This document shows, piece after piece, positions 52,797-55,965 of a stretch of 64,000 bases of DNA. This DNA comes from a virus (Duplodnaviria; Caudoviricetes): positions 1,022 through 65,021 of IMG/VR virus record IMGVR_UViG_3300017917_002782. One strand, written 5' to 3'. Both the position numbers and the translations under genes were made by a program. Within the stretch, counting starts at the first letter, position 1; each line of letters begins with the position of its first letter. Below the pieces are notes generated by a model. The model had not been told where the DNA came from. It worked only from the letters and a program-made list of their open reading frames with translations, and searched no databases.

Positions 52797-52868
52797 TAGC
52801 CCCTACGGGAATCGAACCCGTCTTTTCAGGATGAAAACCTGATGTCCTAACCGATAGACGAAAGGGCC
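52797..52868 (-). tRNA. tRNA-Glu(TTC)
   Basis: cloverleaf, loop TT-TTC-AT. Confidence 0.9.
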
Positions 52869-52904
52869 ATTTAACAATTATTGGTCTTTAACTTTATTTA
52901 TGTC

Positions 52905-53210
52905 TTAGGAGTGTAAAACTTCCTTTTGACTATTTTTTATTTTGTTTTCCAATTTATCTAATCGAGAGTCTAATTGGGAAAAGACCTCTCTTTCTGTGTT
53001 ATCAATCCTTCGATTTACATCATCATGGTTATGATTAATTAAATCATAGATTTCTTTTTTTATGTTATCCAATTCATTGGATAGATTATTTTGAAAAGAT
53101 TCTAAGTTCTTTTCCACTTTTCCTACCTTGACGTATCCAACCACAGCCAGTATTGCAATTACAACACCAACCACAGAAGACACCCCTAAAATAAATGATA
53201 ATGTTTCCAT
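52905..53210 (-). CDS. TM + coiled-coil protein
   Basis: start moved to METLSF; the upstream part of the track ORF is tRNA-Ser. Confidence 0.7.
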   Translation of the reverse strand: METLSFILGVSSVVGVVIAILAVVGYVKVGKVEKNLESFQNNLSNELDNIKKEIYDLINHNHDDVNRRIDNTEREVFSQLDSRLDKLENKIKNSQKEVLHS

Positions 53211-53257
53211 AATTTTAAAGTTGTTTTTAAATTTGTCAAAGAACAATAATTGTTTTG

Positions 53258-53340
53258 CGGAGGATGAGGGAATCGAACCCCCAAGGCTTTTACACCCAGC
53301 TGATTTCAAGTCAGTGTCCTCGTCCATTCGGGCACCCTCC
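53258..53340 (-). tRNA. tRNA-Ser(TGA)
   Basis: loop CT-TGA-AA, long variable arm. Confidence 0.88.
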
Positions 53341-53352
53341 TTTATTTTTTTG

Positions 53353-53486
53353 TGGTTAGGACAGGAGTTGAACCTGTATCACCGGATTAGTATACTTACG
53401 GCATTCGTCCTCAGTTATCTATTTTACAAGTCACCTCACAGGACTAAGCGTCTTCCCGAACAAATATGTTCTTCCGCCACCTAACC
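53353..53486 (-). ncRNA. tRNA-like RNA with D-loop hairpin and large anticodon-arm insert
   Basis: acceptor GGTTAGG/CCTAACC, TTAGT...ACTAA stem, T arm ACAGG-TTCAACT-CCTGT. Confidence 0.6.
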
Positions 53487-53713
53487 AAAATTTGCCCCAC
53501 ATTGAGATTCGTGTGAGGACTAGATTGCGTCGGTTTCTTTCACTGTTTCAAGAACCTGTTGCATCTCTGCGTTTAAACCCGTCAACCCAACGTTGGAGGA
53601 ACTGGATATTGAACCTTTATCCCAACGACCCCCTCTTTAAGTTACGGAGGAGACAACTATATCATTTGATCACCAAAACGATACCAAATGGTCTGAGTAT
53701 CTCTTACTCATTG

Positions 53714-53786
53714 CAGTCCCAACGGGAGTTGAACCCGCTCCATACTCCGTGACAGGGAGATATCTTAACCGTTTGACCTTGGGACT
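53714..53786 (-). tRNA. tRNA-Asp(GTC)
   Basis: loop CT-GTC-AC. Confidence 0.85.
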
Positions 53787-53793
53787 GTATGTG

Positions 53794-53878
53794 AGCCTCC
53801 TGACGGATTCGAACCGCCGATGTTCTTTCGATTCCTGATTACAAATCAGGTGCTCTCGACCAACTAAGCGAAGGAGGC
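53794..53878 (-). tRNA. tRNA-Thr(TGT), long variable region
   Basis: loop TT-TGT-AA. Confidence 0.85.
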
Positions 53879-53885
53879 TTATTTG

Positions 53886-53958
53886 TTGCGGGGGGAGGAT
53901 TCGAACCTCCGACCTTTGGGTTATGAGCCCAACGAGCTACCTCTGCTACCACCCCACA
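53886..53958 (-). tRNA. tRNA-fMet(CAT)
   Basis: GGG/CCC anticodon stem. Confidence 0.88.
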
Positions 53959-54013
53959 ATGTTATATCCAAATATAGATAAAATATTTTAAAGAACAAAA
54001 TGTTTTTTAAAAG

Positions 54014-54087
54014 TTGCGGGGGAGGGAATCGAACCCTCGTCATTCAGCTTATGAGACTGAGCTGGTACCTCTCCAGTCCACCCCGCA
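54014..54087 (-). tRNA. tRNA-Met(CAT)
   Basis: loop CT-CAT-AA, lacks GGG/CCC. Confidence 0.82.
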
Positions 54088-54092
54088 ATATT

Positions 54093-54169
54093 TGGTTGGA
54101 ACAATAGGAATCGAACCTATAACCTTTCGCGTATCAGACGAATGCTCTAACCAATTGAGCTATATTCCA
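54093..54169 (-). tRNA. tRNA-Ile(GAT)
   Basis: loop CT-GAT-AC, CCA. Confidence 0.9.
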
Positions 54170-54262
54170 ATAAGAGTCCCGTTTGCAATTTTTCAATTAC
54201 TTCATAAGGGTTTAGTTTCATTCATCCATCACGGGACCACGAGGAGAACTAATTCCTTACTT

Positions 54263-54338
54263 TGGGTGACCGAGGAGGTTCGAACTCCCGACCCTCTGAA
54301 CCACAATCAGGTACTCTACCAACTGAGCTACAGCCACC
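54263..54338 (-). tRNA. tRNA-His(GTG)
   Basis: loop TT-GTG-GT, G-1. Confidence 0.9.
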
Positions 54339-54394
54339 ATATTATAAGGTCTGAGACTTATAATTGTCAATTATAAGGTTATAACCTTATATTG

Positions 54395-54477
54395 AGCTCA
54401 TGGACGGATTTGAACCGCCGTGGACCTAAGTCAATGGTTTTGCAGACCACTCCATTCAACCACTCTGGCACATGAGC
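54395..54477 (-). tRNA. tRNA-Cys(GCA), long variable arm
   Basis: loop CT-GCA-AA, U73. Confidence 0.85.
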
Positions 54478-54482
54478 ATTTG

Positions 54483-54555
54483 TAGTTCCTAAAGGATTCG
54501 AACCCTTATCAAATCATCCGTAGTGATTTATTCTATCCAATTAAACTAAGGAACC
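54483..54555 (-). tRNA. tRNA-Arg(ACG)
   Basis: loop CT-ACG-GA. Confidence 0.88.
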
Positions 54556-54558
54556 ATC

Positions 54559-54990
54559 TTATTTTTGTATGTTATCCCAATCTTCTTGTGTGCCCAACTT
54601 AATTGGTACAAACAATGCAAACCCATCATCATCTTCAAAGTGGTTACATTCATCTTCTCTCCAACCAAATTTGTATCTCATGTATTCAAATTTGTTTTCT
54701 TTTTGATTCCATCGAGCAATGGTTGTTCTTCTATGTTCACCAATATAAATTTGACCATCAATCAAATCTTTTTTTGGTATTGCACCAGCCTTAATAAGTT
54801 TTGGTACATAGAACTCTTTCCACTCTTTTTCATCCACCACCGGTAGTTGAGGAACATCTTCTGGATTATTGAATTTTGGTAATTCATTTTCCCAATATTC
54901 TTTAATCTTTTTCAATTTTTCTTCTTTCATCTTCATTTTCTCCGCCTCAAACTTCATTTTGGCGGCATCCAATCCTATTTGATTATTCAT
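54559..54990 (-). CDS. hypothetical protein inside tRNA operon
   Basis: 143-aa ORF between tRNAs. Confidence 0.7.
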   Translation of the reverse strand: MNNQIGLDAAKMKFEAEKMKMKEEKLKKIKEYWENELPKFNNPEDVPQLPVVDEKEWKEFYVPKLIKAGAIPKKDLIDGQIYIGEHRRTTIARWNQKENKFEYMRYKFGWREDECNHFEDDDGFALFVPIKLGTQEDWDNIQK

Positions 54991-55006
54991 AATTTTGTTT
55001 TTTAGT

Positions 55007-55093
55007 TGGCACGGACGGTAGGATTCGAACCCACGATGAACTTTCGTTCCCGGTTTTGGAGACCGTTGCCTTTAACCACTCGGCCACGTCCGT
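55007..55093 (-). tRNA. tRNA-Trp(CCA), long variable arm
   Basis: loop CT-CCA-AA, GAAC-GAAA-GTTC arm, G73-CCA. Confidence 0.85.
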
Positions 55094-55102
55094 GTATTTT
55101 TG

Positions 55103-55178
55103 TAGTTCCTATTGGAGTCGAACCAATGATCTTCACTTTGTAAGAGTGACGCTTTAAAACCAACTAAGCGAAGGAACT
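55103..55178 (-). tRNA. tRNA-Val(TAC)
   Basis: loop CT-TAC-AA. Confidence 0.88.
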
Positions 55179-55185
55179 ATCTTTG

Positions 55186-55259
55186 CACCGCCTGGGGGAC
55201 TCGAACCCCGACCTTCTGAGTGACAGTCAGATATACCAAACCATTATACGACAGACGGT
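55186..55259 (-). tRNA. tRNA-Asp(GTC)
   Basis: loop CT-GTC-AC, slightly atypical acceptor/T junction. Confidence 0.78.
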
Positions 55260-55267
55260 GTTTATTG

Positions 55268-55352
55268 TGACCCCGGTGGGACTCGAACCCACGACTCCCA
55301 CATTAAAAGTGTGGTACTCTAAGCTTACGCAAACCAACTGAGTTACGGAGTC
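55268..55352 (-). tRNA. tRNA-Lys(TTT) with D-loop insertion
   Basis: loop CT-TTT-AA; D loop carries an extra GC-GTAA-GC. Confidence 0.85.
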
Positions 55353-55359
55353 ATAAAAA

Positions 55360-55435
55360 TGGTGGTGACGAGTGGAGTCGAACCACTATCATCGGATTTT
55401 CAGTCCGTTGCATAGACCACCTTTGCTACGTCACC
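55360..55435 (-). tRNA. tRNA-Phe(GAA)
   Basis: loop CT-GAA-AA, CCA. Confidence 0.9.
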
Positions 55436-55467
55436 AAGTTAAACCAATATGTCAAAGAACCTATTTG

Positions 55468-55538
55468 TGGAATATTTGGGATTCGAACCCATACCTCCCG
55501 CCGTCTAGCGGTTGCACATCCTTATGTGCTTTTATCCC
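55468..55538 (-). pseudogene. tRNA-like element with no readable anticodon
   Basis: D and T arms present, G3-U70 pair, anticodon loop shortened (CCGC-TAGACG-GCGG). Confidence 0.55.
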
Positions 55539-55543
55539 TTTTG

Positions 55544-55616
55544 TGGACCGTCCGGGACTTGAACCCGGGACTGAAGCTTGCAAAGCTACCGTGTTAGCCA
55601 ACTATACCAACAGCCC
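55544..55616 (-). tRNA. tRNA-Ala(TGC)
   Basis: loop TT-TGC-AA, G3-U70. Confidence 0.9.
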
Positions 55617-55618
55617 AT

Positions 55619-55654
55619 AAACAAAAAAACCTCGAGAGATTATCCCGAGGTTTT
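55619..55654 (-). terminator. attenuator terminator of tRNA operon 2
   Basis: AAAACCTCGGGA/TCTCGAGGTTTT stem plus U tract, immediately before tRNA-Ala. Confidence 0.85.
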
Positions 55655-55682
55655 AATATATTTTGTTTTCAATTATAACAAA

Positions 55683-55778
55683 TTACACAATCCCTCGGGA
55701 CATACGAATATCAGCCACCTCTGCCCATTTCGAACAGGTTGTAAATGACATTGTGATAATATGTGTAAATCGTTTCAT
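55683..55778 (-). CDS. leader peptide 2 MKRFTHIITMSFTTCSKWAEVADIRMSRGIV
   Basis: lies between promoter (TACCTTTG at 55825-55832) and terminator; carries antiterminator TCCCGAGG (55693-55700). Confidence 0.8.
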   Translation of the reverse strand: MKRFTHIITMSFTTCSKWAEVADIRMSRGIV

Positions 55779-55965
55779 CGAATTTTTTATTTATTAGTTT
55801 TTACTTTATTTCTTAAATCGAATACAAAGGTAATCATAAATACCAATATAAACAAGAAAAAAACAATTTTTTTTAAAAAATATTTTTTTTTAGTCAAAAA
55901 AAGAATCGTTTAAGTCCAATATTTATTGGTGATACAATTATAAACACAAAATTAAAAAAACAATT

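Follow-up and report, generated by a model that had tools for sequence, protein, structure and literature searches.

How does a tailed phage time the production of its own transfer RNAs (tRNAs)? The question is raised by a stretch of viral DNA of 64,000 nucleotides (nt) from IMG/VR record IMGVR_UViG_3300017917_002782 (Caudoviricetes; positions 1,022 to 65,021 of the record, hereafter the window). The window covers nearly all of a 65-kb contig, has a G+C content of ~32%, and carries 29 tRNA genes, all on the minus strand, plus one transfer-messenger RNA (tmRNA) gene (ARAGORN, Rfam). A plus-strand gene of 189 amino acids (aa) begins at 55966, so that positions 55617–55965 form a divergent intergenic region serving the minus-strand tRNA block. 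Within this region, a short open reading frame (ORF) and an intrinsic terminator precede the first tRNA gene. We consider it very probable that this element is a ribosome-mediated (leader-peptide) transcription attenuator, which would report decoding speed over a whole roster of codons and gate the phage tRNA array downstream.

On the minus strand, the unit starts with a promoter box of the TAnnTTTG type, TACCTTTG (55825–55832, placed by motif), and continues with an A-rich untranslated stretch of ~45 nt, leader ORF 1 (55683–55778; ATG start, 31 codons plus TAA), encoding the peptide MKRFTHIITMSFTTCSKWAEVADIRMSRGIV, and terminator 1 (55626–55654), which comprises a 12-pair G+C-rich stem followed by a T-run to ~55617. 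The gene for tRNA-Ala(TGC) starts at 55616, ~10 nt past the terminator stem and within or just after the T-run, and any tRNA-Ala transcript must therefore cross the terminator. Together with 15 further genes, tRNA-Ala forms array 1 (52796–55616, minus strand; 16 tRNA genes for 14 amino acids, identified by ARAGORN and Rfam). Its order is Ala, a tRNA-like element, Phe, Lys, Asp, Val, Trp, a 143-aa ORF, Arg(ACG), Cys, His, Ile(GAT), Met, Met, Thr, Asp, ~370 nt without an ORF, Ser(TGA), a 101-aa membrane ORF, and Glu, which closes the array at 52796. The second Asp gene (GTC; 53714–53786) was detected by Rfam and relaxed ARAGORN only. A first-pass annotation made from the sequence alone had listed this promoter, ORF, terminator, and tRNA order, and every listed item was confirmed.

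Leader peptide 1 contains all 14 amino acids of array 1, and L, N, Q, P, and Y are absent from it. Its sensor zone, i.e., codons 2 to ~21 (55775–55716), holds one to four codons each for 13 of the 14 amino acids, with Asp (codon 23) at the edge of the zone. Apart from the start codon, 29 of 30 codons fall in codon boxes served by array 1 (26 of 30 under strict wobble), in agreement with the earlier count of 30 of 31 including ATG. The served boxes account for 62% of the codons in the long ORFs of the window (51% under strict wobble), which results in a binomial P of 1.2e-5 against window codon usage (4.4e-5 under strict wobble); the first-pass annotation had proposed such a check, and the match lies far beyond chance. 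Leader 1 also ranks first for codon match among the 207 ATG ORFs of 25–45 codons in the window. The match extends to boxes that are split between isoacceptors (CGN 3/3, TCN 3/3, and ATY 4/4; joint P 4e-4), in a genome with 17% CGN and 83% AGR among its Arg codons. The lone unserved codon, GGG, overlaps the strand TCCCGAGG (55700–55693), which, as previously claimed, is complementary to the terminator 5' arm CCTCGGGA (55650–55643), here over its full length.

A second unit, at 52554–52745 on the minus strand, comprises the box TATCTTTG (52745–52738), a leader ORF of 34 codons (52716–52612), and terminator 2 (52587–52554), followed by array 2. This array encodes the complementary tRNA set Leu(TAA), Arg(TCT), Pro, Asn, Leu(TAG), Tyr, CAT, Gly (twice), Gln, and Ser(GCT). 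Array 2 serves 20 of the 23 codons at positions 2–24 of leader 2 (P 1.2e-5), and the split-box codons of this leader, ATA (twice), AGA, and AGT, match Arg(TCT), Ser(GCT), and a CAT/TAT tRNA. When the codons of both leaders were sorted by serving array, the ratios were 27:1 versus 12:19, with a Fisher P of 1.5e-6 to 1e-5 depending on the wobble rules and on the reading of the CAT tRNA. The synonymous choice in both leaders thus matches the isoacceptor encoded downstream. Apart from one terminator at the region end, terminators 1 and 2 are the only strong minus-strand terminators within 46–57 kb, and both are preceded by a short ORF and followed by a tRNA block.

Both leaders can adopt two exclusive folds. 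Full-length leader 1 RNA folds as the terminator (−44.4 kcal/mol, z −4.3). Truncated before the terminator 3' arm TCTCGAGG (55637–55630), it forms an antiterminator of 10 base pairs between ORF nt ~77–86 and the terminator 5' arm, and this duplex is stronger than in shuffled sequences (−16.4 vs. −7.3 kcal/mol, p 0.007). Leader 2 shows equivalent alternative folds of terminator and antiterminator, and its antiterminator duplex is likewise stronger than in shuffles (p 0.037). The antiterminator 5' strand of leader 1, GUCCCGAGGG (55692–55701), corresponds to ORF nt ~77–87 in codons 26–29, 3' of the sensor zone. As it lies 7 nt ahead of the stop codon, a ribosome at the ORF end would cover it.

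Relatives of this locus were recovered from IMG/VR via the 143-aa gene inside the array and the 189-aa neighbour; they are large phages with contigs of up to 434 kb. In these relatives, too, the first tRNA block opens with a short ORF followed by a terminator and tRNA-Ala, and those inspected retain both the TACCTTTG box and a second box, TTCTTGTTT (55850–55858, minus strand), ~20 nt upstream of it. The antiterminator pairing is conserved as well: 94.4% of 144 cells were paired in 18 relatives, with compensatory changes in two pairs (5 cells), and 97.5% of 79 cells in a second alignment of 10 further relatives, with one compensatory pair. Slid-register controls reached at most 61%, and the terminator itself was paired in 99% of cells in the 18 relatives. 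Pairs were counted on two separate subfamily alignments; when both subfamilies were aligned jointly, the antiterminator strands did not line up. Leader, terminator, and antiterminator are therefore conserved with compensatory changes in orthologous loci, where the first-pass annotation had suggested to look for them. The element combines a short ORF between promoter and terminator, an adjacent terminator, an exclusive antiterminator, and reporting codons, i.e., all sequence-level features of a leader-peptide attenuator, which supports the attenuator layout proposed at the outset.

Leader 1 is kept as an ORF in ~27 distinct peptide variants (IMG/VR loci), with a conserved core, FTHTMSFTICSKWA[ED], and a variable C-terminal third. 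The pattern search behind this variant set, and behind a first count of changes by codon position, demanded the C-S-K-W-A codons, and both are biased by this. In a pattern-free set of 11 cores, third codon positions changed most (35 minority letters vs. 9 and 21). A synonymous/non-synonymous count of 88/254 was set aside, because a shift of two codons in the register and a single divergent row had inflated it. In one subfamily, the C-terminal part is read in another frame, yet it retains the strand that pairs with the terminator arm. The absence of L, N, Q, P, and Y, which the first-pass annotation had pointed out, holds in the window but breaks down in relatives outside the core, where codon 3 can encode Q and the C-terminal part can include N, L, and G. 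Leader 2 is conserved likewise, and the isoacceptor preferences of the two leaders are opposite across relatives: the sensor zones of leader 1 contain Ile ATY 41/ATA 5, Ser TCN 65/AGY 0, and Arg CGN 28/AGR 12, those of leader 2 Ile ATA 22/ATY 2, Ser AGY 12/TCN 7, and Arg AGR 12/CGN 0.

Could the same pairings be operated without a ribosome? A real terminator/antiterminator switch could be set by a protein, a small RNA, or direct tRNA binding (T-box-like), with the ORF being incidental. It speaks for such a switch that the alternative pairings are the best-supported part of the element, leader translation being a prediction. However, neither the window as a whole, searched at gathering level, nor 55430–55850, searched at E ≤ 1, gave a T-box match, no riboswitch family matched, and the only family match was a sub-threshold one to His_leader. 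The ORF also stays open and changes mostly at third positions, its amino-acid and codon content tracks the array, and unrelated units, too, have the antiterminator strand close enough to the stop codon for a ribosome there to reach it. We therefore regard control by a factor other than the ribosome as unlikely.

The unrelated units come from a search that was blind to peptide and codon match. It required a terminator predicted by RNAfold, an ORF ending ≤ 70 nt upstream, and a tRNA ≤ 150 nt downstream. Hits were dereplicated to 18 units by greedy clustering at 45% identity, with three likely false calls retained; single-linkage clustering of the leaders at 40% identity merged nearly everything and was dropped. 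In these 18 units, the mean share of leader residues served by the unit's own array was 0.57, whereas shuffling the pairings gave 0.42 ± 0.023; the observed share was not reached in any of 200,000 permutations. Chance as the source of the codon match was thus rejected on the binomial test, the ranking of small ORFs, and this permutation test. The best partner of the terminator 5' arm beat shuffles (p ≤ 0.05) in 10 of the 18 units, and in genuine-looking units it lies within the last ~30 nt of the ORF.

Individual units illustrate how leader content follows array content. A Ser/Thr-rich leader (L018) precedes Ser, Ser, Thr, Cys, His, Thr, Ser, Glu, and Asp, and a leader consisting mostly of M, L, C, H, and S (L030) precedes Cys, Met, His, Ser, Leu, and Leu. 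On the plus strand of L039, one leader with 9 Lys in 26 residues lies before three Lys tRNA genes, and another, Ser/Arg-rich leader lies before Arg, Ser, Arg, and Ser; these two units are single- and two-isotype versions of the leader/array design. The clearest single case is provided by the sister phages L026 and L027, in which both sensor zone and array have been exchanged. Their C-terminal parts and terminators are nearly identical, whereas the sensor zones read FTHTMSFTICSKWADETR vs. ITYTTSFMNPQITWNEQP and the arrays differ in step (Ile Phe Lys Trp Arg Cys His vs. Pro Asn Trp Gln Thr). Across seven sister pairs, isotypes present in one array only were commoner in the corresponding leader in 15 cases, rarer in 3, and equal in 8, a count whose force is reduced by the fact that the pairs were hand-chosen and L019 was used three times. 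The co-variation of leader and array content that the first-pass annotation had asked about is accordingly seen both across families and between sister phages. As a further observation, single leaders in L016 and L031 (+) list 12 and ~19 amino acids before arrays of matching breadth; the roster can therefore span nearly the whole code in one unit.

These comparisons also bear on a simpler explanation, namely that the short ORF encodes a small protein and is followed by a terminator of its own, that the tRNAs owe their transcription to other promoters or to leaky read-through, and that the codon match arises as a side effect. The good conservation of the core peptide would suit a protein gene, as would promoter-like boxes inside the arrays. 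However, tRNA-Ala abuts the terminator and leaves no space for a promoter of its own, the composition of the peptide shifts as the array does, both among unrelated leaders and between sister phages, and the choice of synonymous codons agrees with the downstream isoacceptor. Moreover, the end of the ORF contains the antiterminator strand, which covaries with the terminator arm, and the two subfamilies preserve this pairing although they read the C-terminal third in different frames. A small protein gene is thus quite unlikely.

For a leader-peptide attenuator, the following course of events would be expected. Transcription would start from the TACCTTTG promoter, with a ribosome translating the 31-codon leader behind the polymerase. 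Fast decoding of codons 2 to ~21 would bring the ribosome to the ORF end, where it masks GUCCCGAGGG; the terminator 5' arm, CCUCGGGA, would then pair with the 3' arm, and transcription would stop in the T-run just upstream of tRNA-Ala. A ribosome lagging or stalled in the sensor zone (at about codon 21 or earlier) would leave GUCCCGAGGG free. This strand, made ahead of the 3' arm, would pair with the 5' arm and block the terminator, and the polymerase would enter the tRNA genes. The array would be made on demand, and the unit would shut itself off by negative feedback once tRNAs are plentiful and charged. The second unit would act likewise for the complementary tRNA set. That ribosome and polymerase are coupled, which way the switch works, and what naturally triggers it, perhaps anticodon nucleases or starvation, are inferences.

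An attenuator of this type might also serve as an infection timer or starvation sensor, responding to falling host charging or to a flood of phage messenger RNA instead of gauging tRNA supply. Any cause of slow decoding would yield the same signal, and the promoter belongs to a class that is common in the presumed early region: boxes of the TA[TC]CTTTG class, which head leaders 1 and 2, occur ~20 times in the 1–10 kb region, besides 52738–52745 and 48562–48569. Only such sub-classes and their positions are telling, as the window shows no enrichment of the general pattern TAnnTTTG (109 vs. 103 expected), which we take to be the Bacteroidota −7 consensus. However, amino-acid starvation is not relieved by making tRNA, and the isoacceptor-level choice (CGN vs. 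AGR, ATY vs. ATA, TCN vs. AGY) fits a gauge of the downstream tRNAs. We therefore consider a pure timer or starvation sensor very unlikely, although a timing role may exist on top of the tRNA gauge.

Several points weigh against an attenuator that reads tRNA supply. Leader translation and regulated read-through are both predictions from the sequence. Each amino acid is represented by only one to four codons in leader 1, none of them in a run, and it is therefore uncertain how well the leader would sense that one tRNA has become somewhat scarce. The match is imperfect, with GGG in leader 1 and K, V, and TCA in the sensor zone of leader 2. Relatives carry AGA and CAA at codons 2–3 of leader 1, and leader 1 of L019 retains three Thr codons while the Thr tRNA sits in array 2. 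Covariation is modest, with three compensatory pairs in total among related sequences. In addition, the invariant C-S-K-W-A codons also make up a small hairpin inside leader ORF 1 (CUGUUC GAAAU GGGCAG; 55721–55737, minus strand), and part of their conservation may therefore act at the RNA level. This hairpin has seven pairs, its one-sided changes preserve pairing, and it is possibly an RNA polymerase pause hairpin or a plain RNA-level constraint.

Possible internal promoters are a further point of this kind, since they may feed parts of the arrays without passage through the attenuator. A near-palindrome directly ahead of tRNA-His contains a perfect sigma-70-type TTGACA-18-TATAAT (54370–54341, minus strand), and promoter-like TATATTTG boxes are found at 53976–53969 and 52533–52526 (minus strand). 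The latter box sits between terminator 2 and tRNA-Leu, where a TAnnTTTG-type box is kept in the eight inspected relatives that have a leader 2. The 10-mer TTCTTTGACA (55459–55450, 53243–53234, and 52520–52511, minus strand) could be an internal promoter or a processing signal. In array 1, such a bypass cannot apply to tRNA-Ala because this gene abuts the terminator. Together with the positions 52526–52533 and 53969–53976, TATATTTG boxes occur on the minus strand at 42527–42534 and 46792–46799, closely precede tRNA-Leu(TAA), a tRNA-Met, and the tmRNA, and form a second promoter-like class distinct from TA[TC]CTTTG. The three exact copies of TTCTTTGACA in the tRNA region each lie 20–35 nt upstream of a tRNA or small gene, and the motif is retained in relatives ahead of tRNA-Phe and tRNA-Leu(TAA).

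What would such a gauge be needed for? The right third of the window is a translation and RNA-repair region. An RNA-repair trio (56865–58754, minus strand) adjoins the tRNA arrays and comprises a cyclic-phosphate processing receiver-domain protein (56865–57428), a T4 Rnl1-type RNA ligase (57292–58359), and an AAA_33 kinase (58356–58754). Further genes encode SmpB (48595–49029), an RNaseH_like protein (49029–49490), the tmRNA (42088–42507), and a tRNA with the anticodon CTA (47369–47443). As a tentative proposal, in which we have clearly less confidence than in the attenuator itself, both leaders could be on-demand gauges of the tRNA pool within a counter-defence island. Slowing at any one rostered codon, caused by host anticodon nucleases or phage-induced tRNA loss, would switch the tRNA block of that leader on; the ligase, the kinase, the receiver-domain protein, SmpB, and the tmRNA would repair cut tRNAs and rescue stalled ribosomes; and the roster would be rewritten when tRNA genes move between blocks. 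The leader sequence could then reveal which tRNAs a phage handles as one regulatory unit.

Two non-coding stretches of array 1 caught our interest. The tRNA-like element between tRNA-Ala and tRNA-Phe (55468–55538, minus strand), absent from the first-pass annotation, reaches 27.5 bits with the Rfam tRNA model, just short of its gathering score of 29. The acceptor stem and T arm are good, whereas the anticodon loop is shortened; the element is also found in L002 and L011. The ORF-free stretch of ~370 nt between the second tRNA-Asp and tRNA-Ser(TGA) (53341–53713, minus strand) contains in its 3' part (53355–53487) an acceptor-like stem and a T-arm-like hairpin, i.e., tRNA-like ends; positions 53345–53500 folded no better than shuffles (z 0.49) and had no Rfam match. 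A distant blastn search of 52500–56000 against 50,697 phage records matched tRNA genes only, with no record covering 80% of the query. A search of sequencing runs listed no RNA run containing the stretch, but three runs of one study with small shares of it. Their contigs mainly carried tRNA fragments from other organisms; in addition, two short ones from relatives span a terminator into the next tRNA (55542–55748 and 52488–52639), but the runs may be DNA and contigs do not reveal transcript ends, and no inference was drawn from them.

If our reading is correct, the element would be the first mechanism for how large phages time their own tRNA production, it would tie tRNA arrays to tRNA-targeting host defences and to the adjoining RNA-repair genes, and it would represent a compact natural device for sensing how fast many codons are decoded at the same time. 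The natural rewriting of leaders along with their arrays, as in L026 and L027, makes the idea directly testable by simple reporter constructs. A literature search, mainly of articles outside subscription journals, turned up no paper in which a leader peptide controls tRNA genes or arrays.

The individual parts have well-known counterparts. Multivalent leaders exist in enterobacteria, where the thr leader reads Thr and Ile, and the ilvGMEDA leader reads Ile, Leu, and Val. The phage unit resembles them in its promoter, its short leader rich in regulatory codons, and an exclusive antiterminator that, as predicted from sequence, could be masked by a ribosome at the ORF end, as well as in reading more than one amino acid. 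In contrast to these leaders, which control biosynthetic enzymes and use runs of two to three amino acids, tRNA genes would be gated here, ~13–14 amino acids are listed one to four times each, and synonymous codons follow the downstream isoacceptors. The attenuator of E. coli pheST (phenylalanyl-tRNA synthetase), with its Phe-rich leader, likewise applies leader-peptide attenuation to a gene of the translation apparatus, but reads one amino acid and controls a synthetase rather than tRNA genes. In T-boxes, which control aminoacyl-tRNA synthetase genes in Gram-positive bacteria, tRNA status also sets the choice between terminator and antiterminator upstream of translation-related genes; they bind uncharged tRNA directly and need no ORF. 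Regarding RNA families, no Rfam leader family reached gathering level in the window. His_leader (RF00514) matched weakly over leader and terminator (55620–55759; 27 bits, E 0.02), which fits a similar hairpin layout; with a gathering score of 49 and no run of His codons in the phage leader, the element is not a member.

The closest published case of a tRNA array is the trn operon of Anabaena sp. PCC 7120. This silent array of 26 genes is described as being induced under translational stress, with rtcB co-regulated (PMC8421152, PMC10272220). Like the phage arrays in our proposal, it is an extra tRNA array that is off until translation is impaired, and it goes along with an RNA ligase, the co-regulated rtcB in Anabaena and a nearby Rnl1-type enzyme in the phage. 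Its control is attributed to the repressor TrcR, which acts at direct repeats in the promoter (PMC8421152), and this article makes no use of the terms "attenuat-", "leader peptide", and "terminator". Compared to the Anabaena operon with its promoter repressor, and to the leaders of biosynthetic and synthetase genes, the phage element appears to be a textbook attenuation switch that is placed on the tRNA genes themselves and reads a whole set of codons.

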